Shown here piece by piece: positions 1,604 to 57,207 of a DNA stretch of 64,000 bases; the first letter of the stretch is position 1, and every line of letters starts with the position of its first letter. The notes under the pieces were generated by a model, which was not told the origin of the DNA, ran no database searches, and was given only the letters and a program-made list of their open reading frames with translations. This DNA is from a virus (lineage: Duplodnaviria; Heunggongvirae; Uroviricota; Caudoviricetes): the IMG/VR virus record IMGVR_UViG_3300023371_001771, positions 1 to 64,000 of that record, one strand, 5' to 3'. The position numbers and the translations under genes were made by a program.

Positions 1604-1622
1604 CCATTAATTTTGTACTGTT
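1604..1622 (-). promoter_or_regulatory. conserved leader/promoter motif copy (AACAGTACAAAATTAATGG in gene sense)
   Basis: Directly downstream of the sigma70-like promoter 1623-1660 and upstream of the desulfurase gene. Confidence 0.6.
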
Positions 1623-1660
1623 ATTATACCATATATTTGCATTTTGTCAACATAAAAAAA
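1623..1660 (-). promoter_or_regulatory. sigma70-like promoter (TTGACA-N17-TGgTATAAT)
   Basis: Read on the minus strand: ttgacaaaatgcaaatatatggtataat. Confidence 0.6.
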
Positions 1661-1676
1661 TAAAAGGGTGGGAGGA

Positions 1677-2669
1677 TTACTCCTCTCCACCCATTGGAAT
1701 ATCAATAATTGGAAGTGCGCCAGAACCCATCATATAAGTTGGAAGGTTGCCAGTCCAGTTCTGTGCGTACTCATAAGCAACAACTTCGTTTGTGATAGCT
1801 TCTGCAAGAGCCTTAGTAGCTTCCGCTTCCTTTTCGCCCTTGTAAGCAATTGCATCAGCCTCAAGCTGTGCTACTTCAAAGTCGGCCTGAGCCTTAATGC
1901 GAGCGGCTTCAGCTTCTGCGTTTGCGTTAATTTCACGAATTGCAGCATCATTTTCGGCCTGAATCTTAGTGCGCTCAGCAGACTGTCGAGTACGCTCTGT
2001 TTCCATCTGCTGCTGAGTCTTGTCACGAAGAGCTTCCTGCTCGGCCACCTGCTTTGCTTCGATTGCAGCAGTGTAAGCATCAGAGAAATCAAAGTCATCA
2101 ATTACAACAGCGACTTCAATACCATACTTAGACGCGAAAGTAGAAACCGTGGCATCAATGTTACTCTGCAGCTGAGTGCGTAGTTCAGTCATGTTTTCTG
2201 CCTCAACAAGACCAAATTCTGCCTTGATTGCGTTGTTAACCTGCGGCTTAATTAGAATGTTGAAATAATCAATACCAACAGTCTTGTAGATATTAGGCGC
2301 GGAAGATGAAAGCAGATTGTACTTTACAGTGTAAGTGTAAACAACTTCCTGTAGGTCAGAAGAAAAGCACACGTTTCGTTCAGTAAAAATCTGTTCCTTG
2401 TTCGTCATAGTCGTGATATTCTGCCATGGCGCGTGAATGTTCATGCCTTCTGGTAGGTTTCTATCTTCTACGCGACCAAAGGTGGTAAGAATACCAGTAT
2501 GACCAGTAGGCACCGTAGAGATACAAGAACTACCAATAATAACCACCGCAAGAATTACTGCGATTACGCTTGCAATACCACCGATGCGGCTACATTCGAG
2601 CTTGGATGCAACAATGGGGATTACAATTGCGGCGATTAGAAGTAGGATACCGATTACGACACTAAACAT
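1677..2669 (-). CDS. SPFH/band-7 (stomatin/prohibitin/HflK-like) membrane protein
   Basis: N-terminal TM helix, SPFH-like core and a long Ala/Glu/Gln-rich coiled-coil C-terminus. Confidence 0.6.
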   Translation of the reverse strand: MFSVVIGILLLIAAIVIPIVASKLECSRIGGIASVIAVILAVVIIGSSCISTVPTGHTGILTTFGRVEDRNLPEGMNIHAPWQNITTMTNKEQIFTERNVCFSSDLQEVVYTYTVKYNLLSSSAPNIYKTVGIDYFNILIKPQVNNAIKAEFGLVEAENMTELRTQLQSNIDATVSTFASKYGIEVAVVIDDFDFSDAYTAAIEAKQVAEQEALRDKTQQQMETERTRQSAERTKIQAENDAAIREINANAEAEAARIKAQADFEVAQLEADAIAYKGEKEAEATKALAEAITNEVVAYEYAQNWTGNLPTYMMGSGALPIIDIPMGGEE

Positions 2670-2825
2670 AAGGACACCCTTTCTTTTTGTGTTTTATTTT
2701 AAGGCTTGTGCAGTGGCGTCCCACCGTATTAACCTGGGTTGAAAAAACCAATACTCTAAATGTTTCCATCCGTTATTGGTGAAAGTTATACCCCTTTTTC
2801 ACGCACAATTTAATAATACCTTACC

Positions 2826-2899
2826 TGGAGCATCGTACCAGATTCGGACTGGCACTCCAACCTTGGAAGGGTTGTGTGCTACCATTACACCAACGATGC
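2826..2899 (-). tRNA. tRNA-Gly (anticodon UCC)
   Basis: Cloverleaf read on the minus strand: acceptor gcatcgt/acgatgc, anticodon arm caacc-cttccaa-ggttg, CCA encoded. Confidence 0.8.
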
Positions 2900-2960
2900 A
2901 TATTTGCATAAGCTCTAGTTTAAACACCTACACGACGTGAACATACTTATGCTGGTAGGC

Positions 2961-3096
2961 TTGTCCCTCTGGGACTCGAACCCAGACTATGCCTTGCTAG
3001 GGCCTACGGCTTATTGGTGACAGATTGTAGATTTGCACTACAATATCCTAAATGAATCTGCCAAGGCCGTGGCTCTCACCATTGAGCTAAGGGACA
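2961..3096 (-). tRNA. tRNA-like gene interrupted by a ~60-nt insertion in the anticodon region (possible intron; anticodon perhaps UGG/Pro)
   Basis: The 5' half (acceptor tgtccct, U8, D arm gctc-aatggtga-gagc, anticodon 5' stem acggc) lies at 3096-3066. The 3' half (gccgt, T arm ctggg-ttcgagt-cccag, acceptor agggaca) lies at about 3010-2961. They are separated by an insert containing a perfect hairpin, attgtag-tgcaaat-ctacaat. Confidence 0.5.
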
Positions 3097-3630
3097 TTAT
3101 AAAGCGGTTTTTCTTTCGGACATCTCCTATTGAGGTATGGATTACCGAAAACCACTAAGGTAGGCACATGTGCGTCACTTTCCTCAACAAGCTAAAACAC
3201 TTTAAAAGCCTTGGTGGGCAAGGTTGGTGCCGCCCCAACTACTCCCGAAGGAAACGGGTTTACAGCCCGTCGCGTTTGCTGATTCGCTACTTGCCCAAGG
3301 TGTCACGCCATTTTGAGACTAACGTGCTGTCTTGGCTTTTTGTTGTCGTTGTTTCACAGGTGCCATAACCAACGCCTTTCTCATGTTGCCACATATTAAG
3401 CCTGTGTTATTGAGAAATAGTAAGAGTCAATACCAGCTTGGTGCACGTGGAGGGCCACGATCCCTCAATCCCTTACGGGCACTGGTTTTTGAGACCAGCT
3501 TGTATGCCAATTCCAACACACGTGCGCATGCCCAACACTTGTCCATGCACCCACGAAAATTCGCACGTCAGCTGTTGGCACTGAACAGAAACCATTTGAG
3601 CTCAGAGGCCGTTTACTGTCATATTACCTC

Positions 3631-3660
3631 TCTGGTGCTGGATACCAGACTTGAACTGGT
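3631..3660 (-). ncRNA. tRNA-like 3' terminal element (T-arm plus acceptor plus CCA) without a recognisable 5' half
   Basis: The minus strand reads ccag-ttcaagt-ctgg tatccagc a cca. The only upstream acceptor partner is about 130 nt away. It sits inside the 1.3-kb ORF-free stretch. Confidence 0.25.
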
Positions 3661-4418
3661 ACGGTATATTTCAACCAGCGGATTTTTTGTGATAGGCATG
3701 AGTGATGACCTCACTACTGCTCTGGCAACCCACCAAGTCCGCTGTGTCTGCCGATTCCACCAATCCAGCATATCGGGCAGTTTTACATCTTGCCCAGGAT
3801 GCCGATTAAAACTTCGGACCATCCTCCAAGTTGGAATAAGCAAATACAATCATAAGCAATTTCCTCCTTTGGATTATTTACTGCTGCTAACTAGAACGTC
3901 GAAACATAACTCCAATTACGAATAAGGAGCGACCTTTGTCCAGCGGACGCTATGCCCGAAATCCTTACAACCTAACAGTGTGGGAGCGACCTCGGTTAAA
4001 ACTTTTTATTATATTGAGCTTGCTACTTACCAGCCACGGAGACAACCTATGGGCCTTGACCACCAACCCAAACTCTTTATCGTGGATTTGGTAAATCTTT
4101 TGTGGACTACGCATTCTTCTGCGATCTTAGCCCTCTTTACAACCTTAATAAACGACCTTTGATCAAATCAATCTTTGAAGTTTGAACGTTAAATTTTGAA
4201 CCTTGATCCTTAATCTTTACAGCAACACTTATAATATATATCATATATTTTAAATCTTTATCATGCCTAAAAGATTTACAGTATAAGATTCTTGCTTAAC
4301 GGGCAAGTCTTCTATTAATTGAAGATACTTTCTTTAACTTATTAATATCACTCTAAGTATCAAAAAGAAGAGATAAGCAGTCGTTTAAGGTTTCCGATAA
4401 GTAGCAAGCAAGTTTGCC

Positions 4419-5072
4419 TTAGTACTCGAACTCGATAACAGTTACAGCGTTGGAAACACTGAGAGCTGCATCAACTTCAGTTTCAAACTCATTAATCTCG
4501 TCCATGAGATTTTCCATAAGGTTAGTGACGCCAAGCGGGTCAATTAGGTCATAAGTATTGTTCGTAATGTAATCCTTGCGAAGAGCCTTCATTGCATCAC
4601 TATCGATAGCCATCTTAGAATCCTTAGGCTGAGCCTGGATTACAGACAGCACATACTGTTCAGCTCGCTTTTCAATGGCTTCGCCACTATTACGATCAAG
4701 CTCAACATATGCTGCGCGATAGTTGTCTACAATGCGCTGACGAAGAATCTTCTTGTATTCCATGCCGTGATTCTTCTCTTCGATAGCCTCAGCGACCGTC
4801 ATTTCCTTTTCGCCAACTACAACCTTGGTGGTTGCATTGGAAATCACAACAGCTCGCTTCATTGCGTCACGACGCGCAATTAGAGACTGAACCTTCTGGT
4901 AAGCACTCTTGATGTTTTCCTTGAACTCGGCCACGGTAACTCCGTTAACCTTTTCTGCTGAGTGCTTAACTGCCATCGCGTAAGGATGTGCGTTAATTGC
5001 CTTTAGGATGCGATCATCCATAGTCTTGAGTTCTGCAAGTGCCTTGTGAACCGTCATCTTTTCCTGAGTCAT
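4419..5072 (-). CDS. hypothetical protein
   Basis: ORF trimmed to the ATG (MTQEKM) preceded by AGGGGG. Sigma70-like promoter and leader motif lie upstream. Confidence 0.55.
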   Translation of the reverse strand: MTQEKMTVHKALAELKTMDDRILKAINAHPYAMAVKHSAEKVNGVTVAEFKENIKSAYQKVQSLIARRDAMKRAVVISNATTKVVVGEKEMTVAEAIEEKNHGMEYKKILRQRIVDNYRAAYVELDRNSGEAIEKRAEQYVLSVIQAQPKDSKMAIDSDAMKALRKDYITNNTYDLIDPLGVTNLMENLMDEINEFETEVDAALSVSNAVTVIEFEY

Positions 5073-5100
5073 TTTCTTGTACCCCCTAATAAGCTTTGAA

Positions 5101-5119
5101 TCATTAATTTTGTACTGTT
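5101..5119 (-). promoter_or_regulatory. conserved leader motif copy
   Basis: cagtacaaaattaatga on the minus strand, between promoter 5137-5165 and the RBS. Confidence 0.55.
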
Positions 5120-5136
5120 TCCCTTGAACTGGAATT

Positions 5137-5165
5137 AGTATATCACACATTCCATATTCTGTCAA
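5137..5165 (-). promoter_or_regulatory. sigma70-like promoter (TTGACA-N17-TATACT)
   Basis: Minus strand: ttgacagaatatggaatgtgtgatatact. Confidence 0.55.
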
Positions 5166-5189
5166 TAGAGTTTTTAAATCTTAACAAAA

Positions 5190-5266
5190 TGGCGTCCCAG
5201 GAGAGATTCGAACTCCCGACACACGGCTTAGAAGGCCGTTGCTCTATCCTACTGAGCTACTGGGAC
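5190..5266 (-). tRNA. tRNA-Arg (anticodon UCU)
   Basis: Acceptor gtcccag/ctgggac, anticodon arm acggc-cttctaa-gccgt, T loop ttcgaat, CCA encoded. Confidence 0.8.
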
Positions 5267-5515
5267 ATAATATGGTAGGGTATCTCCAACCTACCGCGAA
5301 CTACTAACAACATCACTTGCGTTTATTCTTTAGCAAGCATCCAATCAAGGCTGTGATGAACCCTGCTTGCCGCCGAAGACTAACTTGAATTATAAAGCCT
5401 AATAGTTTGTGGACTTGAACCACACAGCGCTCTTCCACTGGCCATCCTGCAACGTACCATATAACTTTTCGAGCAGTTTCTTCTCAACTGGTTTAACGTG
5501 CGAAGTCAGCACGGC

Positions 5516-5591
5516 TGGTGGAGATGATGGGACTCAAACCCACGACTTTTACCTTGCAAGGGTAACACTCTATCAACTGAGTTACATCCCC
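5516..5591 (-). tRNA. tRNA-Ala (anticodon UGC)
   Basis: Acceptor ggggatg with the G3:U70 Ala identity pair, anticodon arm ttacc-cttgcaa-ggtaa, CCA encoded. Confidence 0.85.
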
Positions 5592-6007
5592 ATAAAATGT
5601 GTATACCAGTTTTGATTGGGACGAAGACTGGAAACTTCTTTTCTCTCGACTCGCTCCGTAGAGTCGGCTTAACCGACGTACTATTCTGTCTCGCATACAC
5701 TTTCTGAGACTTGTGAAGAGAGCATTCACAATAGCGACCTAAGCCTTTTTGCCGTTAGAAAGCATTATCTTGTCGCCTGGATAGGTGGACTTTTGGAACG
5801 TGCACCACCATACACTCCGTCCTATATCTAACTGGACATTTCGCTTTTCTTTCAGATAAAAATCTTAGCTGCTTTGTGGTTTTGCGATAACCCATAGTGT
5901 TCTCCATCAAGTACCGCATGGCAGCACGGGATTGACTTCACAGAACGAGCCTAATCTCAAGTATTAGGCAAAACACGTGTATGATATTCTAAGTGTCATA
6001 CCCGCTG

Positions 6008-6098
6008 TGGCGGAGATGGTGAGCTTTGAACTCACGCGCCAATTTCTTGACCTAATCGGTTAGCAACCGATCCCCTTCAACCGCTTGGGTACATCTCC
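6008..6098 (-). tRNA. tRNA-Ser (anticodon GCU), class II
   Basis: Long variable arm, anticodon arm atcgg-ttgctaa-ccgat, acceptor ggagatg/catctcc, CCA encoded. Confidence 0.8.
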
Positions 6099-6101
6099 AT
6101 G

Positions 6102-6192
6102 TGGCGACTGGTTTCGGACTTGAACCGAAACACCCTTTCGGGTTACTGGCAGATTTCGAATCTGCTGCCTTACCAATTAGGCTTAACCAGCC
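6102..6192 (-). tRNA. tRNA-Ser (anticodon CGA), class II
   Basis: Long variable arm, anticodon arm gcaga-ttcgaaa-tctgc, T arm ttcgg-ttcaagt-ccgaa, CCA encoded. Confidence 0.75.
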
Positions 6193-6202
6193 GCATGATT
6201 GA

Positions 6203-6325
6203 TTACTTCTGCTCCAGCTGTCTAATCTGACGCTTTAGCTTATTAATGATGTTTGCGTTGCCAACAGGATCTCTCTGCTGTAGAAGGTTAATACGTGCCT
6301 GAAGTCGTTCAACAGTCTTAGTCAT
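6203..6325 (-). CDS. small hypothetical protein (40 aa) inside the tRNA cluster
   Basis: ATG preceded by aatGGAGGtataaaatc, and a variant leader motif (ttaattaataatggagg) lies upstream. Predicted coiled-coil peptide MTKTVERLQARINLLQQRD... Confidence 0.35.
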   Translation of the reverse strand: MTKTVERLQARINLLQQRDPVGNANIINKLKRQIRQLEQK

Positions 6326-6434
6326 GATTTTATACCTCCATTATTAATTAAATATGGTAGCAGTGTTTTTAGTCCATATTAAACTAGGCACCCACCTCTG
6401 TGGATCCCGCCAGGATTGAACTGACATCTCTGCT

Positions 6435-6510
6435 TGGAGCCGAGTATCGGACTTGAACCGATAGCCTGCTGATTACAAATCAGCTGCTCTGCCAATTGAG
6501 CTAACTCGGC
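6435..6510 (-). tRNA. tRNA-Thr (anticodon UGU)
   Basis: Acceptor gccgagt/actcggc, anticodon arm gctga-tttgtaa-tcagc, CCA encoded. Confidence 0.8.
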
Positions 6511-6811
6511 ATAAAATAGTCTAAGACTCTTCCGTCCTGTCAAGGATAGGTCATCGCTTGTTTCTAGCCAAACCAAGAATCAATTAACTCGAAAACGCTT
6601 TTACATTCTTAGACTATATGGCTGGGAACCAGGGTAACGCTCCCCGTCTTCATGGGTCAAAGCCATGCGTACCAACTTTTATACGAGTTCCCATCATTGA
6701 CCCAACTTTCTGCTCCTTGTATGCTTGCATCAGAGGCCAGGACGCTCTCTCCGTATTGGGTCGGAGTACGTATATTTCACTACTCACGTGTCTGTTCGCG
6801 AAACAGCATGT

Positions 6812-6886
6812 TGGCGGTCACGGTGTGACTCGAACACACAACCTAGCGGTTAACAGCCGCTTGCTCCACCATTGAGCTACGTGACC
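6812..6886 (-). tRNA. tRNA-Asn (anticodon GUU)
   Basis: Acceptor ggtcacg/cgtgacc, anticodon arm agcgg-ctgttaa-ccgct, CCA encoded. Confidence 0.8.
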
Positions 6887-7057
6887 ATATGGTGTCTCTA
6901 CAGGCGGGGCCAGTGCAGCGACCCTATATGAGGGCTTTCCACGAACTACTTTTGCAACATTTTGTATGTCTGTTAATCTTACTGCCGTCAGCTAATTGGC
7001 AGTCGTTGCTATCCTTGTTCCGTACTAACACCTATACATTGCACTACCTGTAGAGAG

Positions 7058-7133
7058 TGGTGGGTGATTGGAGAATCGAACTCCAGACGCCATGATTAAA
7101 AGTCATGTGCTCTACCAACTGAGCTAATCACCC
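7058..7133 (-). tRNA. tRNA-Lys (anticodon UUU)
   Basis: Acceptor gggtgat/atcaccc, anticodon arm catga-cttttaa-tcatg, CCA encoded. Confidence 0.8.
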
Positions 7134-7148
7134 ATATCGTGCGCCAGT

Positions 7149-7223
7149 TTATAGTCTTGGCGCAGGACTTCCCTTAACGGGTGGACTATCCAGATCATTG
7201 CCGATTTCACGAATTCTCTTCAT
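7149..7223 (-). CDS. tiny ORF (24 aa) between promoter and tRNA cluster
   Basis: ATG preceded by GGGAGG at the end of the leader motif. MKRIREIGNDLDSPPVKGSPAPRL. May be only a leader peptide. Confidence 0.2.
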   Translation of the reverse strand: MKRIREIGNDLDSPPVKGSPAPRL

Positions 7224-7235
7224 ATGAATCATCCT

Positions 7236-7255
7236 CCCATTAATTTTGTACTGTC
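7236..7255 (-). promoter_or_regulatory. conserved leader motif copy (drives tiny ORF plus tRNA cluster)
   Basis: gacagtacaaaattaatggg on the minus strand. A sigma70-like promoter lies at 7278-7306. Confidence 0.55.
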
Positions 7256-7277
7256 TTGCTTCGTTTGAAGTGTATTT

Positions 7278-7306
7278 ATTATAACACATCTTCCAGCATT
7301 TGTCAA
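7278..7306 (-). promoter_or_regulatory. sigma70-like promoter (TTGACA-N17-TATAAT) for the tRNA cluster transcript
   Basis: Minus strand: ttgacaaatgctggaagatgtgttataat. Confidence 0.55.
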
Positions 7307-7330
7307 TACCTTTTTTCAAAAAACTTTATG

Positions 7331-7675
7331 TTAAGTATTTTCCTTGAACGTTTCACTTACTCGATCATTAAGTCGTTCAAGCGCCTTCTTGAACATCGCA
7401 ATCTTAGAATCAAAGCACTTGTAATACTTCTTCATAAGCTTTGCCTTAGCGATCCGCTCACCAGTTGCTTCATCATAAACATCGTCACCATGGCAGTGAG
7501 TTTCTACCCTAAAAGTATCTGGCATCATGTACTTATCATCAAACATGAAATCATCAGTTCCAAATTCGCTTGTTAGCTTTAGGATCTTATTACAAGCATC
7601 AAACTGAGTGCCGTTTAGCACAGCTACCGTCTTCTTCTGTTCTGGAACGTGATAATAATTAATTGCCATTTTCAT
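7331..7675 (-). CDS. hypothetical protein
   Basis: ORF in the co-oriented array. Promoter and leader motif lie upstream at 7691-7751. Confidence 0.5.
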   Translation of the reverse strand: MKMAINYYHVPEQKKTVAVLNGTQFDACNKILKLTSEFGTDDFMFDDKYMMPDTFRVETHCHGDDVYDEATGERIAKAKLMKKYYKCFDSKIAMFKKALERLNDRVSETFKENT

Positions 7676-7690
7676 TGTCTCCTTTGTTGC

Positions 7691-7708
7691 TCATTAATTT
7701 TGTTTTGT
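7691..7708 (-). promoter_or_regulatory. conserved leader motif copy (variant aacaaaacaaaattaatg)
   Basis: Between promoter 7722-7751 and gene 7331-7675. Confidence 0.5.
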
Positions 7709-7721
7709 TCAACCGTGTATA

Positions 7722-7751
7722 TATAATACCATATATTTCCATATATGTCAA
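7722..7751 (-). promoter_or_regulatory. sigma70-like promoter (TTGACA-N17-TATTAT)
   Basis: Minus strand: ttgacatatatggaaatatatggtattat. Confidence 0.5.
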
Positions 7752-8434
7752 GTGGTTTCTGAAATATTTTTTTCATTTCTTTTTTCAACCAGATAATCGT
7801 ACAGATCTTCTGCACTCGCAAGCAGCTTACCATCAACAGTACGATCACTTTCGAGCCCAGTCAACCAGCGCATAATCAGCGGATCTTCATCAATATTGAA
7901 ATACAGCTCAGGATCATAGAACTGTGGTTCAAGCTCCTCTTCTAGCGCATCAACAACTCTATCAATAATATCCATCATCATGCCGCGCTCAAAATAAACA
8001 TTAAGAATGCCCTCTAGCGCCCTTAGGTTGGTCCAATAGCTTTCCAGCGCATTTACAACTTCACAAAACGACTTCTTTGTAATCACAAACTTTTCACTGC
8101 TTTCTTCATTGGTGTAATCCTTTAATGTTTTCAGTTCGCTTAAAGAAATATTGTCCAAACGTGCAGAATACTCGTCGCAAACATTGCCTAGAATTCCATA
8201 TACCCATTTCTTGAACGGAATCTCTTTTGGATGACACTCATTTACATATGCTCTCCAACCAGTTAAAGTTGGGACAAAGTAAAATGGGCTCATATACAGA
8301 AAATACTGGTCAGTGTCTTCTTCGTAGTAGAATTTAATTGGTTCGTTTGAAACAAAATCTGTAAATGTGTAGCCGTCTTCTGGTCGTAACAGTTTGTGAA
8401 CTAGGCGTTTGCGTAGATTTTTAAATAGATTCAT
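7748..8434 (-). CDS. hypothetical protein
   Basis: ORF trimmed to ATG (MNLFKNL). A 46-aa ORF sits upstream at 8428-8568. Confidence 0.5.
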   Translation of the reverse strand: MNLFKNLRKRLVHKLLRPEDGYTFTDFVSNEPIKFYYEEDTDQYFLYMSPFYFVPTLTGWRAYVNECHPKEIPFKKWVYGILGNVCDEYSARLDNISLSELKTLKDYTNEESSEKFVITKKSFCEVVNALESYWTNLRALEGILNVYFERGMMMDIIDRVVDALEEELEPQFYDPELYFNIDEDPLIMRWLTGLESDRTVDGKLLASAEDLYDYLVEKRNEKNISETT

Positions 8435-8587
8435 TTTTCTTTTCCTCAATCATATCAATAATCTTGTACTGAGTTGGATCTGTTTCACAAATTTCAACTC
8501 TAAAGCCAACCTGGTTGAAAATCTCATTAAGCTCTTCGATACTCATATTGTTGTTCATAAATTGCATCTCCTTTATTGTTTTTATTG

Positions 8588-8616
8588 ATTATACCACATT
8601 AATCTTGTATTGTCAA
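8588..8616 (-). promoter_or_regulatory. sigma70-like promoter whose 17-nt spacer is the conserved motif (TTGACA-atacaagattaatgtgg-TATAAT)
   Basis: A class A arrangement, where the motif occupies the promoter spacer. Confidence 0.55.
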
Positions 8617-8625
8617 TAGTTGGAA

Positions 8626-10870: not shown

Positions 10871-10899
10871 ATTATACTCCATTAATTTTGTATTGTCAA
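10871..10899 (-). promoter_or_regulatory. sigma70-like promoter with the motif as spacer (TTGACA-atacaaaattaatggag-TATAAT)
   Basis: Follows the intrinsic terminator 10912-10948 and precedes gene 10183-10845. Confidence 0.6.
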
Positions 10900-12138: not shown

Positions 12139-12161
12139 ATATATTCAATCTCCTTTTATGT

Positions 12162-12185
12162 CATTATTAATTTTGTATTGTTAGG
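12162..12185 (-). promoter_or_regulatory. conserved leader motif copy
   Basis: ctaacaatacaaaattaataatg on the minus strand, between hairpin 12184-12205 and the RBS of the Sak4-like gene. Confidence 0.5.
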
Positions 12186-12205
12186 AGTGAGCTGTCGCCC
12201 ACTCC
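12184..12205 (-). terminator. stem-loop after the SSB-like gene (terminator-like, no clear U-tract)
   Basis: ggagtgggcgacagctcactcc. Confidence 0.35.
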
Positions 12206-12214
12206 TTGCTTGAT

Positions 12215-13288: not shown

Positions 13289-13317
13289 AATTACGTCTTC
13301 TCCTTTTAGTCCTTAAA

Positions 13318-13659
13318 TTATTCCTTGCAATTGCAATGTTCACAATTGCCATCACAGTCACATTCATCTTCAACTAGAATGTCTGCAAATCCATCCTTGA
13401 ACATTTCGTCCAGTACATTAAGCAGTTCGTAAACGTCATCACATTCAAAAACCTGCTCCATAATGTTAAATTTTACGCGTTCGTAATCAGAAGGGGTGCT
13501 CATATCAAACTCATAAACCCAAGTAGGATCACAGCAACAACTTACCCTAAACATAGATTCATCACAATGCTTCTGAAGCTCAATACAGTACATGTCTTCA
13601 TAGATGCCAGCAGTGTGAAAAGTGATTACCTCAGCAGTATAAGTTCCGTTGTACACCAT
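13318..13659 (-). CDS. hypothetical Cys-rich protein
   Basis: ORF with a C-terminal CDCDGNCEHCNC cluster. RBS and leader motif lie upstream. Confidence 0.5.
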   Translation of the reverse strand: MVYNGTYTAEVITFHTAGIYEDMYCIELQKHCDESMFRVSCCCDPTWVYEFDMSTPSDYERVKFNIMEQVFECDDVYELLNVLDEMFKDGFADILVEDECDCDGNCEHCNCKE

Positions 13660-13679
13660 ACCATTAATCTCCTTTTACG

Positions 13680-13698
13680 CCATTAATCTTGTGTTGTT
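13680..13698 (-). promoter_or_regulatory. conserved leader motif copy (variant with caagattaatgg)
   Basis: aacaacacaagattaatggcg on the minus strand, upstream of gene 13318-13659. Confidence 0.5.
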
Positions 13699-13906: not shown

Positions 13907-13943
13907 TATTCATGTTTGGCCTCCTTCCATACCGTCTCAATAC

Positions 13944-49929: not shown

Positions 49930-50187
49930 GTGAAGATTACAGACATTGTACACGCCGACACTGGAAAAACAAGAACTGATGGAAGATATTCACAGCGCAT
50001 TGGTAGTACAGTAGAATTTTTTGTTGCTCCAAGAGTTGGAGTGTCAATGATGCTATTGTACGTAGAAGATAATCAGGGAAACAAAAAAGACGGTGTTCTA
50101 CAAACTAGCACAGTTGAACATATTATTGACAACGGTGCGGTGATTGCAGTATACACGCGCAACAGCGTATATTATCTTGAGAGGTGA
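49930..50187 (+). CDS. hypothetical protein
   Basis: ORF with GTG start. Confidence 0.35.
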   Translation: MKITDIVHADTGKTRTDGRYSQRIGSTVEFFVAPRVGVSMMLLYVEDNQGNKKDGVLQTSTVEHIIDNGAVIAVYTRNSVYYLER

Positions 50188-50193
50188 CAAAAC

Positions 50194-50580
50194 GTGAAGC
50201 ACAAATATCTGCTTGAGCTTTTCCCAGACAAGCTCCCATTCCCCTACAATGAAGAAGATTACCATGATTTTGATTATCGTGATACTTTTAGTATGGATGA
50301 AACTATTGTTCTATGGATGTATCAATGCTTAAGATTTTTCCAAGACGAAGCATCAAAGATTGTTAATTTTGATTTTCATAAGGTTGAAATTGACGGCGTA
50401 GAACTTACTCAAAGACAGTGTATTGACAGAATGGTTGAAGATTGTAAAAAGATTCTTTATGACGAAAGTGCTTTTGAAGATTACAAAGATGAAAATGAAT
50501 ATATTATAAATGTGGTAGATCCAGCTGTGGATGATCTTTTTATGGTTTTTAGTAAAGTACATATGCACATGTGGTGGTGA
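50194..50580 (+). CDS. hypothetical protein
   Basis: ORF with GTG start. Confidence 0.4.
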   Translation: MKHKYLLELFPDKLPFPYNEEDYHDFDYRDTFSMDETIVLWMYQCLRFFQDEASKIVNFDFHKVEIDGVELTQRQCIDRMVEDCKKILYDESAFEDYKDENEYIINVVDPAVDDLFMVFSKVHMHMWW

Positions 50581-50852
50581 TTTGTATGAGTGATTATGAA
50601 GAAAAGTGTAAGCTGTGCACACATAATTACAAACCAGTTGACTGCGAGCCAAAGTGCAATATGATGTGCGCCAATCATGAATATTTTAAACCAATAACCA
50701 ATTATGACATGATCATGAAAATGAACGAAGAGGATTTGGCGGATGAATTCTTCAATTGGTTTTGCAATGGATATTGTGAAAATTATGTTGATGACTTCGG
50801 TGAAGTTTATGATAATATACTTGAGTGGCTTAGAAGCATGCGCTTGGGGTGA
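50571..50852 (+). CDS. Cys-rich protein
   Basis: Contains CKLC...CEPKCNMMC. Confidence 0.4.
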   Translation: MVVICMSDYEEKCKLCTHNYKPVDCEPKCNMMCANHEYFKPITNYDMIMKMNEEDLADEFFNWFCNGYCENYVDDFGEVYDNILEWLRSMRLG

Positions 50853-51205
50853 TTAATATGAATGATGTAAATGAGCTAATTAAAAATATATATGAATATA
50901 TTGGAGAGCCAGTTGATTACGCTGAGTTAATTGGTTCGCCAGTGCCATCTACATACGGCATCTGTTATACATACGAAGATCCTGGTGATATATTGCTTGC
51001 ACAGGCCGCAAAAACGTTAGATGAACTATCTAACAATTTGAATGTGTGTGCAAAATGGGAACCTGGTAATGGTTATATGGATTACAGTTTGGATTGTGAT
51101 ATACCAACATATAGATGCTCAAATTGCAAATGCGAAGAAGAGCTTACGACAGACTATTGTCCGAATTGTGGCGCAAAAATGGATTTGGGGGATGAATTGC
51201 TATGA
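50849..51205 (+). CDS. zinc-ribbon protein
   Basis: Contains CSNCKC...CPNCG. Confidence 0.4.
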   Translation: MINMNDVNELIKNIYEYIGEPVDYAELIGSPVPSTYGICYTYEDPGDILLAQAAKTLDELSNNLNVCAKWEPGNGYMDYSLDCDIPTYRCSNCKCEEELTTDYCPNCGAKMDLGDELL

Positions 51206-51408
51206 AAGATCATGACGCAATTGAACAAGCTTATAAAAATGGGTTTGAAGATGGCAAAGCAAATGCCATAAGATATGGCGTTTGGGAAGTAATACGGGAT
51301 CCAGTGGGCATGCCGCTTAGATGGATGCATAGAGAGTGCGGCAGAATTACTATTGAAGCCAGTAAGTATTGTCCTGACTGTGGAGCACAAATGCAATGGG
51401 AGGGATGA
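51202..51408 (+). CDS. zinc-ribbon protein
   Basis: Contains ECGR...CPDCG. Confidence 0.4.
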   Translation: MKDHDAIEQAYKNGFEDGKANAIRYGVWEVIRDPVGMPLRWMHRECGRITIEASKYCPDCGAQMQWEG

Positions 51409-51593
51409 TTGTGGAGAATGTAAATACAGTAACAATTACACTTGATGAATATTTTGAGCTGCGAAATAAAGCAGATGCGAATGCATTTTTAACTATGCAT
51501 TTTGGACAAATTGATGCGCAAATGCAGGAGCTTCGCACAAAATACGAAGAGCTTAGATGGCGTTTTGAAGAGCTAGAAAGAAAAAACAAGTAG
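51396..51593 (+). CDS. hypothetical coiled-coil protein
   Basis: ORF in the array. Confidence 0.4.
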   Translation: MGGMIVENVNTVTITLDEYFELRNKADANAFLTMHFGQIDAQMQELRTKYEELRWRFEELERKNK

Positions 51594-51613
51594 AAACAAT
51601 ACAAAATTAATAG
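51594..51613 (+). promoter_or_regulatory. conserved motif copy upstream of the RNAP-like gene (AAACAATACAAAATTAATAG)
   Basis: No sigma70-like hexamers are evident nearby. Confidence 0.5.
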
Positions 51614-51631
51614 TTAAGGCGGTGATGTTAT

Positions 51632-54430
51632 TTGGCAAAGCAAAAAAAATTACAACAATATGTCTTTAAGATAAACTCTACTCTATTGAGAAAAAATGAT
51701 TGGAACTTAACTTTGCCGCTAAATAGGGCTAGAAATACGACAGGTCTAGTTGTCGCGCTTGCTGATTCTCAGATTTTGTCTTGGATCAACGAGCTTAATG
51801 GAACTACGGATTATGATATTCAAGCTAAAGAAATAAAGCGCCAAATTAAAGAAATTAAAAAGCAGCCAGTAAGTCGTAACAACAAAACTAAAATCTCAAA
51901 TTTGTACAAGCAGTTATATAGACTGCAGTTCAAAGAAGATTACTTGTGTGTCATAATGGACAAGAAATCAGATTATGATCGCGCAAATCAAGGATTTTAT
52001 GTTAATGGTATTAAGTATTTGCGACTTTTGTGCACAACAGGCGGTGTAAAAACCTCAACAGTTGTGTATGTGAGCGAAAAGCTACATCCAGAACTCAAAA
52101 AGCGTATTGAAAACGGCAAGAACAATGAAGTGCAACTTGTCCCTGCCAAATTGGGCGCATATGAGGCTTTGGCCGCTAGTGGATCTCTTGAGGTGAGTTG
52201 GCCAAAGGACAAATATGCTCCAATCCCTGGTGGTGTAATAGTAATCAAGGACGCGTTTACTGAGTTTTATGCTGATTTGATTAATATTGATGATAGCGAC
52301 CGCTCACAGGAGCCAATTGTGCAGTTTGAGCCAAATCAATTAGTTAAAAATGACTGCTCTGACGGATGCTCTATGATGCTTCCATCTTTGTCTAGGCGCT
52401 GGAATGGCGAGCTTAATGATGATTATGAGCACACAATGAGCGGATGCAATCTTCGTTGCGCGTGGACCAAAGGCATGACTTTTACTTTTGATTATATAAA
52501 GTTTGCAGAAGAGGTTGTCGGTGCATCAGATGATTACCCAGAAAAGTATTTGATAACAGATATTTGGGGACAGCAAAGAGATATTAGAGACTCTGAGCTG
52601 ATAATCACTGAAAGCCAGCTTAAACTTTGGAACTGCTATGATTCGTGGGAAGATTTTTACTACAAGTGCCTTGAAAATAAATATACTCTTAGAATTGCGA
52701 AGACTGCGCCGCATGAAGTGGACAATGTAAGACAGTTAAACTATCAGTTTATACAGTCTTTGAGCCTATCAGATGATGATATTCGGGAGCTTATAGCACC
52801 TACTGTTGATGAAATTAAGGATACGCTTGGCATGGATCCAAGAAAAAGCCTTGTGTATTTGTGCGGCAAAAATCTTAAAGCTGAAAACATAAAGTACTCT
52901 GATGTTGCAGCAAGGGCAATAATGGCAAATACGGATGTTATTAATGACCCATATATTCGTAACAGAATCAAAAAAATGATCAATAAGCGCATTAGAGAGG
53001 CAAAAATTGGAGTGCTTGACGTGCGCGGCAACTTCCAGATTATATCTGGTGACATATATGCGCTATGTGAGAGTATGTTTGGCCTTGAGGTGCATGGGCT
53101 ACTTAAGGCAGGTGAAATTTACAGTAAATATTGGAAGGATAATGGCGTTAAGCGTGTAATGTGCGCTAGAGCGCCAATGTCAAACGAGCATTCGCTGGTC
53201 TCTCAGGATATTTGTTACGACGATAAGGTTGAATATTGGTTCAAATACATGGATACTGTGGCAGTTGTAAACGCTTGGGATACGATGCCAATGGCACTTA
53301 ATGGCTTTGATTTTGATGGAGATTTGCTATTTACTACTGATAGCACTCCATTGCTTAACAATCAGAAGAACTTGCCTGCGCTAAATTGCATTCAGTACAA
53401 GGCTTCAAAGAAGGTTGTTACCGAAGAAGATGTTATCAAAGCAAATAAAAATGGTTTTGGTAGTAAGATTGGCAGTATTACAAATAGAATCACTGCAATA
53501 ACTTCTTTGATGGCAAATTATGAGCCAGGAAGCGTTGAATATGAAACTTTAAGGTATAGAACTCAGTGCGGACAGGCGCTTCAGCAAGAAGAAATTGATA
53601 AAGCAAAAGGCATTTTGCCAAATCCAATGCCTAAAAGTTGGTATATTTTTAGTGAAAATGTCATAAAAGATGATGATTCTGACGAGATTAAAGCTCAAAA
53701 AACACTCAATCAGAGGCTTTGCGCAGCCAAAAAACCTTACTTTTTCGGCTATAATTACACCACTTTGAAGCAAGAATATGACTCATATGTGCGTGATACA
53801 GACGATCATGTTCAGAGTATAACGGGCAAAAACATCCGTGATTTGCTTAAAAATGATGGAAAATTGCCCGAAAATGAGCAAAAAATACTTGATTTTTATA
53901 AAAAGAGGCTCCCTCTTGACATTTCTCCATCAACAATGAATCGAATTTGTTGGGCTATTGAGGATGAGTTCGATGGTGTTGATATGTTTTCTAATGTTGA
54001 TTTTGATTATTCTATTTACAAAAGTGGAATAGAATATTCTGTTGAAGATTATGAGCTTATAAAATCAAAATGCGAGTCATTCAAGCAGAAAAAACGAGAA
54101 ATCAATAAGAAAAAATTTGTTGACTGTGAAGTTGAAGACGAAAGTTTCGCTGATCAAATGCAAAAATTGAACTCCGATTTAGAAGAAGATTGCTTTTCTA
54201 TCTGTTCCAATGAGCAGGTTTTATGTGAAATTTTGCTTGATATTTGTTACAAAGACGGATTTGATACATGTATCGTGTGGAGTTTGTGCGGAGATATAAT
54301 TGTGGAAAAACTTGTGAGTAAATCTGGTGTCTACAGTTATCCAGAGCAGTGCGCTGATGGCGAGTTTAACTTCGGAGGTCTGCAGTTTGTCATGAAAAAT
54401 ATTGCGGTTGGAGGTGAAGTGGATGGTTAA
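51632..54430 (+). CDS. YonO-like single-subunit RNA polymerase (two-barrel, beta-prime-like catalytic motifs)
   Basis: VMCARAPMSNEHSL aligns with the beta-prime NRAPTLH motif. About 40 aa downstream, ALNGFDFDGDLLFTTD aligns with the universal beta-prime NADFDGD catalytic motif. Size 932 aa. TTG start after AAGGCGG. Leader motif lies upstream at 51594-51613. Confidence 0.55.
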   Translation: MAKQKKLQQYVFKINSTLLRKNDWNLTLPLNRARNTTGLVVALADSQILSWINELNGTTDYDIQAKEIKRQIKEIKKQPVSRNNKTKISNLYKQLYRLQFKEDYLCVIMDKKSDYDRANQGFYVNGIKYLRLLCTTGGVKTSTVVYVSEKLHPELKKRIENGKNNEVQLVPAKLGAYEALAASGSLEVSWPKDKYAPIPGGVIVIKDAFTEFYADLINIDDSDRSQEPIVQFEPNQLVKNDCSDGCSMMLPSLSRRWNGELNDDYEHTMSGCNLRCAWTKGMTFTFDYIKFAEEVVGASDDYPEKYLITDIWGQQRDIRDSELIITESQLKLWNCYDSWEDFYYKCLENKYTLRIAKTAPHEVDNVRQLNYQFIQSLSLSDDDIRELIAPTVDEIKDTLGMDPRKSLVYLCGKNLKAENIKYSDVAARAIMANTDVINDPYIRNRIKKMINKRIREAKIGVLDVRGNFQIISGDIYALCESMFGLEVHGLLKAGEIYSKYWKDNGVKRVMCARAPMSNEHSLVSQDICYDDKVEYWFKYMDTVAVVNAWDTMPMALNGFDFDGDLLFTTDSTPLLNNQKNLPALNCIQYKASKKVVTEEDVIKANKNGFGSKIGSITNRITAITSLMANYEPGSVEYETLRYRTQCGQALQQEEIDKAKGILPNPMPKSWYIFSENVIKDDDSDEIKAQKTLNQRLCAAKKPYFFGYNYTTLKQEYDSYVRDTDDHVQSITGKNIRDLLKNDGKLPENEQKILDFYKKRLPLDISPSTMNRICWAIEDEFDGVDMFSNVDFDYSIYKSGIEYSVEDYELIKSKCESFKQKKREINKKKFVDCEVEDESFADQMQKLNSDLEEDCFSICSNEQVLCEILLDICYKDGFDTCIVWSLCGDIIVEKLVSKSGVYSYPEQCADGEFNFGGLQFVMKNIAVGGEVDG

Positions 54431-55313
54431 TTTTAAGTTTAATGATAAGACAGATATTGAGCGCAAGCTTTTAGATAGTTATGCTAATCACGAGAATCCC
54501 GAAGAGACAATCAGAGAATTGGCAAGATATAACCATCATATACTTGGCATGAAAAAAGAAGATAATTATGATGCCATACTAGCTTATATGAATAAGAATT
54601 GCGAGGACTTCTATGAAGAGAAGTATTTTAAAACAATATATAGAAATATCTCCAGCGCAAAGAAGTATAAGTTTAGAAATGTTGATCCAGTTATAATTAC
54701 CAAGTCTGAAATTGATAAAATCATAAGTTTAAATGATATCAGGAAAGAAAAGCTTGCGTTTGTTTTACTTGCTGCGGCAAAATATTATAATAACGTTTCA
54801 CCCGACAACAATAACCGCATGTATATATCCATGAGTGACCTGTTTAAACTTGCGAGAGTTGCAATTCCTAGTAAGGAAAGGGCAAGTTATTTGCACTTTG
54901 CATATGAAGATGGTGTGCTGATTGAACATAGTTTTGTTGGTACAAATTTAAAAATTGTTGGGTTTGTGGACGATGATAGTGAAATTGCAATGACTCTTCA
55001 GGAAGATGATTACAAAGAGCTTGCGTATACATATTTAAACTATAAAAATGGCGGATACAAGCGTTGTAAGAAATGCGGAAAGCTATTTAAAATGCATAAG
55101 AGTGCGCCTGGTAGACTGTATTGCAAAGAGTGTGGACAAAAGGAAGAAACAAGTGAGTTTAAGTTGATTAAATGTATAGATTGTGGCGTTGATGTTGCGC
55201 TTAGCACCAGAGATACAGAAACCTGTAGATGCGAAGAGTGCAGAGAGGTGCATATTAAGCAGCTTCGCAGTGAGCAAAACAGAAGATATTATCAAAGCAA
55301 AAAGATTCAGTAG
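54423..55313 (+). CDS. hypothetical protein with C-terminal zinc ribbons
   Basis: ATG after GGAGGTGAAG overlaps the RNAP end. C-terminal CKKCGK...CKECG...CIDCG...CRCEEC. Confidence 0.45.
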   Translation: MVNFKFNDKTDIERKLLDSYANHENPEETIRELARYNHHILGMKKEDNYDAILAYMNKNCEDFYEEKYFKTIYRNISSAKKYKFRNVDPVIITKSEIDKIISLNDIRKEKLAFVLLAAAKYYNNVSPDNNNRMYISMSDLFKLARVAIPSKERASYLHFAYEDGVLIEHSFVGTNLKIVGFVDDDSEIAMTLQEDDYKELAYTYLNYKNGGYKRCKKCGKLFKMHKSAPGRLYCKECGQKEETSEFKLIKCIDCGVDVALSTRDTETCRCEECREVHIKQLRSEQNRRYYQSKKIQ

Positions 55314-55325
55314 GTCGCTTCAAAA

Positions 55326-55346
55326 CTTACAATACAAAATTAATGC
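55326..55346 (+). promoter_or_regulatory. conserved motif copy (CTTACAATACAAAATTAATGC)
   Basis: Lies between gene 54423-55313 and gene 55461-55646. Confidence 0.5.
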
Positions 55347-55460
55347 CCAAAACACCAATAAATCATTGGTGTTTTTGGCATTTCTAAAAAATGACTTTCA
55401 ATTTTTATAAAATGAATAGTAAATAGTTTGACAAATTAGCAATACAGGAGGTACAAAATT

Positions 55461-55646
55461 ATGGCAAAGGCAGCAATTACTAAGAAATTTTCACTGAGTG
55501 CCCAGGGCATTCTTTCTATTGAGGAAGATGGTGCATTTATTGAAAACGCAGATACTGGTGAGCTTATTGACCTAAAGGATCTTCTTGCGGACTTCGCAGA
55601 CAAGGCTGTAAAGCTTAGTGTAAATTACGACGAAGATTACGAATAA
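55461..55646 (+). CDS. small acidic protein
   Basis: ORF with RBS AGGAGG. Leader motif lies upstream at 55326-55346. Confidence 0.4.
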   Translation: MAKAAITKKFSLSAQGILSIEEDGAFIENADTGELIDLKDLLADFADKAVKLSVNYDEDYE

Positions 55647-55655
55647 TTTATTGTC

Positions 55656-55982
55656 TTGGAAGGAGCAAAAAAAGATATGGAAAGGGTAATGAAAAAACCA
55701 GAGCTTGCGCGTGAATTGGCGCAACGCACAGGGTTTTATATAAAAAATATGGAAGCCGTCTTAGACGCGCTTGATGATATTATCGTTGACAACATGAGTA
55801 TGGCCACAAAAGACGAGCCGTCAGAAATCCGTCTTTCTCTTGGGTTTATACTTGGCGGAAGATATTCTCCTAAGCATGAGGTTAGGGATCCACGCACAGG
55901 TGAAAGTGTAATGACTCCTGCAAAATATATTCCTTATGCTAAGTTTAGTCCAGCATTTAGAAAGAAAATTAACAAGAAGTGA
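55656..55982 (+). CDS. HU/IHF-family DNA-binding protein
   Basis: ELARELAQRTGFYIKNMEAVLDAL ... RDPRTGESVMTPAKYIPYAKFSPAFRKKIN matches the HU fold signature (RxPxTGE..I.P....P.FK.GK.L). Confidence 0.7.
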   Translation: MEGAKKDMERVMKKPELARELAQRTGFYIKNMEAVLDALDDIIVDNMSMATKDEPSEIRLSLGFILGGRYSPKHEVRDPRTGESVMTPAKYIPYAKFSPAFRKKINKK

Positions 55983-57190
55983 TGGTGACGGCAATGAATG
56001 ATAATTTGAAAAGACTGCCTCAGGAGACAGATGATCAGTATTTTTATCGTGTGTGTCAAATGAAGGACAGTCTTGGTTTTACATGGCCACAAATGGCAGA
56101 GATTTTTAATAATGAATTTGGTCGTAACATTGGTGATTCGGCGTATCGCAAAAAGTGGGCCGCATTTAGAGGTGTATTTAATGCTAATACTGACAAGCTT
56201 GTCGGCGAGAATACATATTTAAATGAGCTGAAAGAGCAGACCGACGAGCTGTACAAAGCAAAAAGGCAGCTCTACGATCAGAGACGTGAGTATAATAAGA
56301 TGCTTGTTAGTGACGCGAGAGCCGATCATTTGGTTGAAATGCTAATTGAAGCGGCAAACATCGCGCCGCTAGAAAATTACTCAAACATTTTTGTGTGTGA
56401 CTCAAATTCATCCACAAAAGAAGCGGTTTTGCTACTTTCAGACTGGCATTACGGACAGATTTCAGATAATATTTGGAATAAGTATAATACTGAAATTTGT
56501 GAAGATCGCGCTGGCAGATTATTTAAAAAAGTTTATAGCGCATTAAAAGATCATTGTGTTAGAAAAGTGCATATTGTACTGTTGGGAGATTTGATTAATG
56601 GCGCAATTCATAATACTTGCCGTGTTGCCTCTGAGGAAAATACTTGTGAGCAACTAATGCATGTTTCAGAGCTGATTGCGAATTTTATTAATGCTGTATC
56701 TAGATGCACATCAGAAGTATATGTGTATTCTACTTATGGCAATCACGCACGTACTATTCAAAATAAAGAAGATAGTATTCATGCGGACAACATGGAACGA
56801 GTTATTCCATGGTGGCTGAAGCAGAGACTTAAGGACAATAATAAGGTTACTGTAGTTGACAGTGAATATCATGAATTTATTTATGTTGATGTGTGTGGGC
56901 ATCATGTTGTTTGTACACATGGTGACTTAGATAAGTTTAAAGACATTGGTATTACCATTAACAGCCTGTTTTCCAAGAAGTATGGAAAGACTATTGAGTA
57001 CACATTCTCTGGAGACAAGCATCATTTAGAGTCTTTTGAGCAGTTTGGTATTGAATCTGCGCTTGTCGGTTCTTTGTGTGGCACTGATGAATATGCCAAT
57101 AATAAGCGATTGTATTCTAATCCTATGCAGACACTGTGCATTTTTACTCCAGAAGATGGTAAATTATGCTCTTATAATATAAAATTATAA
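55982..57190 (+). CDS. metallophosphoesterase (calcineurin-like; possible SbcD/Mre11-type nuclease or phosphatase)
   Basis: MPP motifs SDWHYG (DxH), LLGDLINGAIH (GDxxD), GNHA (GNH[DE]), and a later THGD. Confidence 0.55.
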   Translation: MVTAMNDNLKRLPQETDDQYFYRVCQMKDSLGFTWPQMAEIFNNEFGRNIGDSAYRKKWAAFRGVFNANTDKLVGENTYLNELKEQTDELYKAKRQLYDQRREYNKMLVSDARADHLVEMLIEAANIAPLENYSNIFVCDSNSSTKEAVLLLSDWHYGQISDNIWNKYNTEICEDRAGRLFKKVYSALKDHCVRKVHIVLLGDLINGAIHNTCRVASEENTCEQLMHVSELIANFINAVSRCTSEVYVYSTYGNHARTIQNKEDSIHADNMERVIPWWLKQRLKDNNKVTVVDSEYHEFIYVDVCGHHVVCTHGDLDKFKDIGITINSLFSKKYGKTIEYTFSGDKHHLESFEQFGIESALVGSLCGTDEYANNKRLYSNPMQTLCIFTPEDGKLCSYNIKL

Positions 57191-57207
57191 CAACACAAAA
57201 TTAATAT
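57189..57207 (+). promoter_or_regulatory. conserved motif copy (AACAACACAAAATTAATAT) ahead of the packaging module
   Basis: Directly after the metallophosphoesterase stop and upstream of gene 57301-57519. A hairpin (ggtgtattgtacacc / ggggaatttcccc) follows. Confidence 0.5.

Follow-up and report, generated by a model that had tools for sequence, protein, structure and literature searches.

Repeated sense-oriented boxes in an uncultured SPbeta-like phage as probable operators of an SroF/MrpR-type master repressor

Described repressor systems and the homolog in an uncultured phage

In the Bacillus phage SPbeta, the repressor MrpR (also named YopR or SroF) was found by chromatin affinity precipitation sequencing (ChAP-seq) to give peaks at ten promoter regions bearing the element SPBRE, and its binding and repression were shown with electrophoretic mobility shift assays and lacZ fusions (PMC10516654). 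In phage phi3T, the structure of SroF on its 26-bp box revealed an integrase fold and a monomer wrapped almost completely around the DNA, with 24 of the 26 bp being read, and the sites of this repressor are many and dispersed over distant parts of the genome (bioRxiv 10.1101/2025.11.27.690993). Here we describe a repeated motif in a 64,000-nt stretch of DNA (hereafter the window) from an uncultured giant gut phage of the Caudoviricetes, IMG/VR record IMGVR_UViG_3300023371_001771, positions 1 to 64,000. The motif is most probably the operator box of this phage's master lysogeny repressor, i.e., the counterpart of SPBRE and of the phi3T element Phi3TRE. The finding reveals no new kind of system, the mechanism having already been worked out in Bacillus phages. 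It would extend SroF/MrpR lysogeny control beyond the Bacillus arbitrium phages to a large uncultured family of ~170-kb metagenomic phages, and it offers a ready-made operator map of at least 31 boxes in which strong promoters are box-bearing save the repressor's own.

Extraction of the SPBRE elements from the SPbeta genome gave ~14 copies, all in the sense of the downstream gene. Those at yonP, yorE, yorM, yorZ and yosX have the arrangement TAGACA-[box]-TATAAT, which equals class A of the window as defined below, while the copies at yopV, yopM and yosL and the second yonX copy lie just ahead of the ribosome-binding site (RBS), and one stands directly before yonO. The boxes of phi3T also have a single orientation relative to the genes, with one ahead of yonO. 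The yonO gene encodes a single-chain RNA polymerase, which has been reported to start late transcription in SPbeta at one site upstream of yonK (PMC5467207). Among 148 induced SPbeta genes, 37 are YonO-dependent.

A 171,516-bp metagenomic contig (ENA ERZ27248446:k141_738774) contains the identical sequence of the window, and boxes were counted over ~84 kb of this 171.5-kb contig, i.e., the window and its flanks. Judged by its gene content, the phage is SPbeta-like. The protein encoded at 51632-54430 on the plus strand, correctly labelled as RNA polymerase-like in the original prediction from the sequence, is a 932-aa homolog of YonO (phmmer against SPbeta YonO, E 1.9e-33). It shares 37-39% identity with proteins of Clostridium phage c-st and of Enterocloster phages, and 25% with SPbeta-group YonO over the 55% that aligned (tblastn). 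Genes for YonK-like, HU-like, YonJ-like exonuclease, YonG-like, terminase and portal proteins lie 3' of yonO, and the other arm carries YorF-, YorG- (Sak4), YorH- and YorI-like (helicase) genes. The families YonK, YonJ_N, YonG_N, YonD_N, YonB, YomW, YomU, YorF and YorH were recognised on the contig, where the gene order YonO, YonK, HU-like, YonJ, YonG, terminase, portal, YonD and YonB, together with the YorF- to YorI-like genes, matches that of SPbeta.

IMG/VR and other assemblies contain many related contigs, 100-176 kb in length. A nucleotide search of a phage collection with window positions 50000-58000 gave zero matches, and scanning representative genomes for YonO brought up no relative. 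An exact-motif genome scan returned mostly single chance matches and a few multi-copy loci in metagenome-assembled genomes of inconsistent taxonomy, the latter being probably mis-binned phage contigs.

The candidate binder of the box is encoded on the minus arm, in a locus with the following features:

14328-15242, minus strand: gene for a 304-aa integrase-fold repressor of the SroF/MrpR/YopR type, the proposed box binder
15317-16291, minus strand: tyrosine-integrase-like gene adjoining the repressor gene on its upstream side, at the place taken by SroD/YopP
15265-15296, minus strand: the repressor gene's own promoter, TTGACA-17-TATAAT, box-free, with the palindrome CAAACAnnTGTTCG in its spacer

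The ATG start that gives the 304-aa protein is backed by the alignment and by public gene calls. Its relationship to SPbeta YopR was detected by phmmer (E 1.9e-13) and by the Pfam family MrpR_N_CB (43 bits against a cutoff of 27), and the precomputed public record of the exact protein carries both MrpR_N_CB and MrpR_C_cat. A sequence search of solved structures returned the YopR/MrpR chains 8bjv and 8a0a (E ~1e-12) as well as chain H of 9rd5, phi3T SroF on DNA, which matched over the full length (E 7e-11). When the AlphaFold model of the protein (predicted local distance difference test score, pLDDT, 71; predicted template modelling score, pTM, 0.64) was compared with the PDB by Foldseek, the top seven matches were SroF and YopR chains (E 3e-10 to 2.5e-08); true tyrosine recombinases followed well behind, at E 1.5e-03 or worse. 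Loss of the catalytic tyrosine and of other active-site residues of recombinases is a trait of this repressor family; in the window protein, the alignment locates these residues unreliably. The neighbouring gene at 15317-16291 is a bona fide integrase-family gene. Homologs of the repressor number 720 at 90% clustering.

Distribution and placement of the box

The repeated motif is real. Its pattern, ACARTACAARATTAATGG, matches the window 19 times with up to two mismatches, against a chance expectation of 0.05, and none of the shuffled sequences attained 19 matches. A position matrix made from the copies yielded 21 strong sites with scores of 22.9-29.8, whereas the next best site, at 8455, scored 14.4, so that the distribution is bimodal. 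The core comprises 18 nt, ACA[A/G]TACAA[A/G]ATTAATG(G), of which 17-18 nt are conserved. Its edges are sharp, with information at background one base beyond, and it is asymmetric, non-palindromic and by itself without secondary structure. All 20 copies listed in the original prediction are present, with coordinates that were off by 0-3 nt, and the copy at 22493-22510 on the minus strand is a further strong one. With matrix scores below 6, the two weaker variants that had been placed near 6335 and 15296 do not qualify as copies; the latter position belongs to the box-free promoter that drives the repressor gene.

The 21 strong copies span 56 kb of the window and are all in the sense of their arm, 16 of them on the minus arm (~1 to 42 kb) and five on the plus arm (~43.3 to 64 kb), which agrees with the earlier claim of co-orientation with the downstream gene. 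The companion claim, that the copies always lie 5-60 nt before a start codon, was overstated. An RBS and the start of an open reading frame (ORF) follow within 60 nt in 16 of the 21 copies, compared with a fraction of 0.23 at random sense-strand positions. The distance is 6-37 nt in these 16 copies, and the other five have no qualifying start codon within 60 nt. The suggestion that the motif is more than an RBS was supported.

Four placements were distinguished. In class A (n=4), the box occupies the 17-nt spacer of a TTGACA-N17-TATAAT promoter, and supplies, with its first three bases, the end of the -35 element. In class B (n=8), the box starts 1-23 nt past the -10 element. Both promoter-linked classes had been proposed earlier, and both hold: class A at 8596, 10879 and 17182, with 29125 added in a weaker promoter, and class B at 1604, 5101, 7237, 13943, 43327 and 44038, with 7691 and 30457 added. 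Copies devoid of sigma hexamers were also confirmed, including that at 51596 ahead of the polymerase gene. These comprise class C, which adjoins the RBS within operons and shows no recognisable promoter (12164, 13680, 19605, 26986 and 51596), and class D, which follows a stop codon and has a hairpin next (41182, 55329 and 57190). In total, 12 of the 21 boxes lie in, or just past, promoters of the sigma-A type. The individual copies are as follows:

1604-1621, minus strand: class B box (score 29.4), 1 nt past the -10 of TTGACA-16-TATAAT; the TTG start of a class-V aminotransferase gene is 15 nt downstream
5101-5118, minus strand: class B box (score 28.0), 18 nt past the -10; start codon 28 nt on
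7237-7254, minus strand: class B box (score 29.4), 23 nt past the -10 of a consensus promoter that heads a tRNA array; only a tiny ORF lies downstream before the array
7691-7708, minus strand: class B box (score 24.7), 14 nt past the -10
8455-8472, minus strand: degenerate box-like sequence of doubtful significance (score 14.4, close to the null maximum)
8596-8613, minus strand: class A box (score 25.5), in the spacer of TTGACA-17-TATAAT
10879-10896, minus strand: class A box (score 29.8), filling the spacer of a consensus promoter that has a terminator directly upstream
12164-12181, minus strand: box with no recognisable promoter (score 25.7); a Sak4/YorG-like gene is 25 nt downstream
13680-13697, minus strand: box with no recognisable promoter (score 27.1), adjoining an RBS
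13943-13960, minus strand: class B box (score 28.5)
17182-17199, minus strand: class A box (score 24.3), in the consensus promoter of the operon that ends in the integrase-like and repressor genes
19605-19622, minus strand: box with no recognisable promoter (score 25.2); start codon 11 nt on
22493-22510, minus strand: box within an ORF called at 164 aa; alternatively, a start codon 51 nt on would place it ahead of the gene (score 22.9)
26986-27003, minus strand: box with no recognisable promoter (score 23.6), 13 nt ahead of the TTG start of a reverse transcriptase gene
29125-29142, minus strand: box (score 28.0) in a weaker promoter, TGGACA-17-TATAAA, whose spacer it occupies
30457-30474, minus strand: class B box (score 28.0), 3 nt past an extended -10 (TGaTATAAT)
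41182-41199, minus strand: class D box, between the stop codon of a 277-aa gene and a terminator-like hairpin
43327-43344, plus strand: class B box (score 29.8), 7 nt past the -10, ahead of the first gene of the plus arm (HTH_36)
44038-44055, plus strand: class B box (score 29.4), 4 nt past the -10
51596-51613, plus strand: box with no recognisable promoter (score 27.2); the TTG start of the YonO homolog is 18 nt on
55329-55346, plus strand: class D box at the end of the yonO operon, joined to a strong terminator hairpin
57190-57207, plus strand: class D box (score 23.0), beginning at the stop codon of the YonJ-like exonuclease gene

Among the 11 near-consensus sense promoters of the window (exact TTGACA, at most one mismatch in the -10 element), ten bear a box, and the sole box-free one (15296-15265) drives the repressor gene itself. 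A box on ten of 11 strong promoters and none on the repressor's own is the wiring expected of a master repressor. The box at 17182, which heads the operon that contains the repressor gene, implies autoregulation.

The palindrome CAAACAnnTGTTCG in the spacer of the box-free promoter is one mismatch off the Firmicute LexA box. Its half-sites are kept in five of six relatives, with the two central bases variable, and LexA or a Cro-like phage protein could be its binder. A search for LexA boxes gave no overall enrichment (18 found versus 13.5 expected).

In relatives with a repressor 63-83% identical to that of the window, the boxes are kept at orthologous sites, where their conservation is on par with that of the -35, the -10 and the RBS. 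At site 13943, compared across six relatives, the -35, -10, box, RBS and ATG stand out as conserved islands between diverged flanks. A census of 275 distinct box contexts from the window and its relatives placed 54 boxes (20%) in promoter spacers and 79 (29%) past a -10 element; 78 promoter-less boxes had an RBS and start codon, and 39 were others. Approximately 17-25 contexts had a terminator-like hairpin next, and ~6% of the boxes were fused to a hairpin after a stop codon. On the contig itself, the 10 kb left of the window contain six further sense copies. To the right, among structural genes, four further copies were found, two of them weak, one of class A and one before a terminator. The contig total is therefore at least 31 copies in ~84 kb, 31 of 31 being in the sense orientation.

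The operator reading and its alternatives

The window and SPbeta share a homologous repressor, the same genome layout, and A-rich, asymmetric, multi-copy boxes in the sense orientation, one of which heads the repressor operon. In either phage, boxes are found in sigma-A spacers or just before an RBS, and also before yonO, and in both the repressor gene follows an integrase-like gene, as yopR follows yopP. They differ in that the phage described here has at least 31 copies in 84 kb, some in the late region and some fused to terminators, compared with ~14 in the 134 kb of SPbeta. The box sequences differ, with no significant resemblance, and the repressors are 27% identical over the aligned part. 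Moreover, the present phage is uncultured, ~171 kb in size and known from metagenomes only, and its host is not Bacillus. Likewise, the integrase-fold repressor of phi3T (PDB 9RD5, monomeric) aligns over its full length with the window protein and reads a multi-site asymmetric box, which is however 26 bp long with two A-tracts, as opposed to the 17-18-bp core found here. SPBRE and Phi3TRE differ in sequence from each other too. A resemblance of the box ends to those of the published phi3T box (CAGTA...TTAATG) occurs in the opposite gene-relative orientation and was set aside as coincidence. As the similarity between the box and SPBRE is not significant, the case for homology rests on the repressor homolog, the gene order and the shared architecture.

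The lambda repressor CI is a dimeric helix-turn-helix protein that binds cooperatively to palindromic operators (OR and OL) clustered at two loci. The resemblance lies in a master repressor that silences the lytic promoters of both divergent arms through operators overlapping these promoters. In contrast to CI, the binder proposed here is probably monomeric, and its non-palindromic boxes are dispersed by the dozen over the genome.

By analogy with its homologs, on which binding and repression have been demonstrated, the 304-aa integrase-fold protein would clamp each asymmetric 17-18-bp box as a monomer, and the asymmetry of the box fits a monomeric binder. At spacer boxes, the bound repressor would shut out the host sigma-A RNA polymerase, while at boxes located from about +1 to +30 it would obstruct open-complex formation, promoter escape or early elongation. 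Promoter-less boxes at gene starts and ends would probably act as internal roadblocks or insulators, and the box before yonO would guard the polymerase gene and thereby the late genes. The repressor gene would be expressed from its own promoter while the rest of the genome is silent, because that promoter is box-free.

Several observations weigh against this reading. The matrix comparison of the box with SPBRE gave p = 0.21 against column-shuffled matrices, although ATACAAA...ATG is shared by eye. At about half of the copies no promoter is recognisable; many such copies adjoin an RBS, and ~6% are fused to terminators. Simple promoter occlusion fails to explain the promoter-less and terminator-fused copies. 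The strict co-orientation, in the window as well as on the contig, is not demanded of a DNA operator, and some boxes lie among late structural genes, unlike in SPbeta. A YopQ-like gene was not identified in the window, and none lies between the integrase-like and repressor genes. No AimR match or arbitrium genes were found in the 64 kb of the window (of 171 kb), and a Sar antirepressor, the LexA-controlled component of the known system, was not identified in the window, where no search was aimed at it.

The co-orientation in three phages, the promoter-less copies adjoining an RBS, the conserved terminator modules and the covarying pairing described below led us to consider, tentatively and as the less likely course, that a clamp-like repressor serves as a polar roadblock or insulator that partitions the ~170-kb prophage and reinforces terminators, or else that the box has a second role in the transcript. 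The sense-only orientation and the role of the promoter-less and terminator-fused boxes are questions that the present phage poses to the Bacillus models as well.

The original prediction had offered three roles for the motif, of which the operator of a global phage regulator is the one favoured here and the promoter of a phage polymerase is disfavoured; an RNA or translation element does not suit the spacer copies and may apply to the promoter-less ones. As an account of the motif as a whole, an element acting in the mRNA, i.e., a leader or translational operator of the T4 RegA kind, an endoribonuclease site or an A/U-rich translation enhancer, is improbable. It would explain why every copy is in the sense orientation, why the 16 copies with a nearby gene start precede the RBS and start codon so closely, with their 3' Gs often part of the RBS, and why promoter-less copies occur inside operons; the copies between stop codon and terminator would also be transcribed, and the terminator stem at 55329 takes in the 3' end of the box through covarying base pairs. 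The class A copies, however, lie in spacers, upstream of the start sites of those promoters. The copy at 10879 is largely untranscribed, because it is both in a promoter spacer and directly behind a terminator, yet it matches the consensus perfectly. In addition, the spacing to the start codon varies, four or five copies lack a nearby start codon, and no secondary structure is formed by the element alone. MrpR/SroF has moreover been shown, in vivo, in vitro and by crystallography, to bind the homologous elements as double-stranded DNA. An RNA-level role is not needed, but the promoter-less copies could have one as a second function.

Slightly further down the scale stands the proposal that the box is the operator of another DNA-binding protein, such as HTH_36 (43356-43715) or the integrase-like protein (15317-16291). 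Placement over promoters indicates a repressor and not which one, and further DNA-binding proteins are indeed encoded in the window. An 18-bp box without dyad symmetry is nevertheless ill-suited to a dimeric helix-turn-helix protein, and among SPbeta-like phages the recognition of long, asymmetric, multi-copy boxes has been shown for SroF/MrpR alone, a family with a homolog in the window, which leaves this proposal unparsimonious and quite unlikely.

The least probable of the alternatives makes the motif a promoter for the YonO-type single-chain polymerase of the phage, with transcription starting at or just past the box. The motif is, like promoters of the T7 type, ~18-23 nt long, asymmetric, multi-copy, strictly sense and located before genes. 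Several copies have no sigma-A hexamers; those at 55329 and 57190 open the late region, which in SPbeta is where YonO-dependent transcription starts; a homing-endonuclease gene inside the yonO of relatives has its own copy; and the sequence of a YonO promoter is still unknown. Unlike T7-type promoters, the boxes overlap host promoters, precede the polymerase gene and concentrate in the early arms. A copy sits 18 nt ahead of yonO itself, ~20 copies precede early, replication and tRNA genes, with most on the early/replication arm, and 12 of the 21 overlap or abut host promoters, four of them in spacers, which would be odd for a second promoter. In SPbeta, YonO was reported to start the late operon at the one site upstream of yonK and not at SPBRE genes, the SPBRE sites are at other genes and bound by MrpR, and the yonN-yonK gap holds no SPBRE-like sequence. 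Enterocloster phage PMBT24, finally, has YonO together with no tblastn-detectable SroF homolog and no comparable gene-start motif, and Geobacillus virus E3, as a weak point in the same direction, has an SroF-like gene and a sense-biased AT-rich box with no detectable YonO. Overall, a YonO promoter is very unlikely.

Terminator-joined boxes and accessory features

At the end of the yonO operon, the order of box, strong hairpin and a conserved block of ~40 nt was found in every relative examined. These hairpins fold with energies of -17 to -22 kcal/mol (z-scores -5 to -7), and the stem at site 55329 covaries among relatives. Within 55329-55385, the box contributes its last 5-6 bases to pairing with bases located 3' of the terminator stem, and its final base covaries with the partner, as AATGC/GCATT in the window versus AATGT/ACATT in the relative L115; orthologous sites were found in L115 and L118.

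The conserved block itself (55378-55425, plus strand), with a consensus of about AAAAATGACaTTgAATTTTyATAaAATGATAG, lies directly past the terminator of the yonO operon. It is a candidate late promoter, because it stands before the YonK-like gene and thus matches the position of the YonO-dependent start in SPbeta; no second occurrence was found within the window. Directly past the box at 57190, the Rfam motif DUF3800-XI was detected at 57209-57259 on the plus strand (46 bits versus a cutoff of 37.8), and a terminator and then the packaging genes follow downstream. In SPbeta, a DUF3800-VIII motif is located at 59409-59474 on the minus strand, in the 1.7-kb non-coding gap between yonN and yonK.

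The yonO gene is intact in the window. Several related contigs (L118, positions 6001-9827; L119, L120, L122 and L123) carry in it a ~1-kb insertion that encodes a GIY-YIG/NUMOD3 homing endonuclease with its own box and RBS. The insertion divides yonO into ORFs of 656 aa and 271 aa and therefore represents an intron or a split gene.

Between the two divergent arms lies a gene-free region of ~1.2 kb (42040-43290), in which the minus strand of 42040-42660 folds unusually strongly (z = -4.5) and matched no Rfam family. On the minus arm, ARAGORN identified a cluster of 11 tRNA genes (2826-7133, minus strand); Rfam additionally reported a 'drum' RNA (5837-5946) and a tRNA-like match of 136 nt (2961-3096). 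Directly behind the box-bearing promoter near 7306 comes the upstream portion of the array, which extends from tRNA-Lys (7133) to tRNA-Arg (5190). The reverse transcriptase gene of the early arm (25713-26972, minus strand; RVT_1, E 8e-21) is preceded by a box. The box-controlled early arm also carries genes for a class-V aminotransferase (NifS-like) and an SPFH/Band-7 protein at 455-2669 on the minus strand, and genes for dCMP deaminase, HD, RNA-ligase-like, kinase/HD and DHH proteins lie further out on the contig (L259, positions 11124-21134). This set of early-arm auxiliary genes suggests a tRNA or RNA repair module.

Repeats were also recorded in two other phages. The top repeat of Enterocloster phage PMBT24, TTCAATTCGTAAAGTAAA, has six exact copies in both orientations, mostly followed by hairpins, and was rejected as unrelated to the box of the window. 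Its copies are located as follows:

1078, 2158, 5034, 73406, 73597 and 87072 of the PMBT24 record: copies of TTCAATTCGTAAAGTAAA

In Geobacillus virus E3 (record positions 91299-141298), the AT-rich sequence TTTAAnnAAATTATAA occurs 20 times in sense and three times in antisense orientation, near promoters and ribosome-binding sites. It may be this phage's own repressor box, and it counts as weak support because the sequence is of low complexity. The SroF-like gp146 of the same phage is flanked by a YopP-like integrase, gp148.

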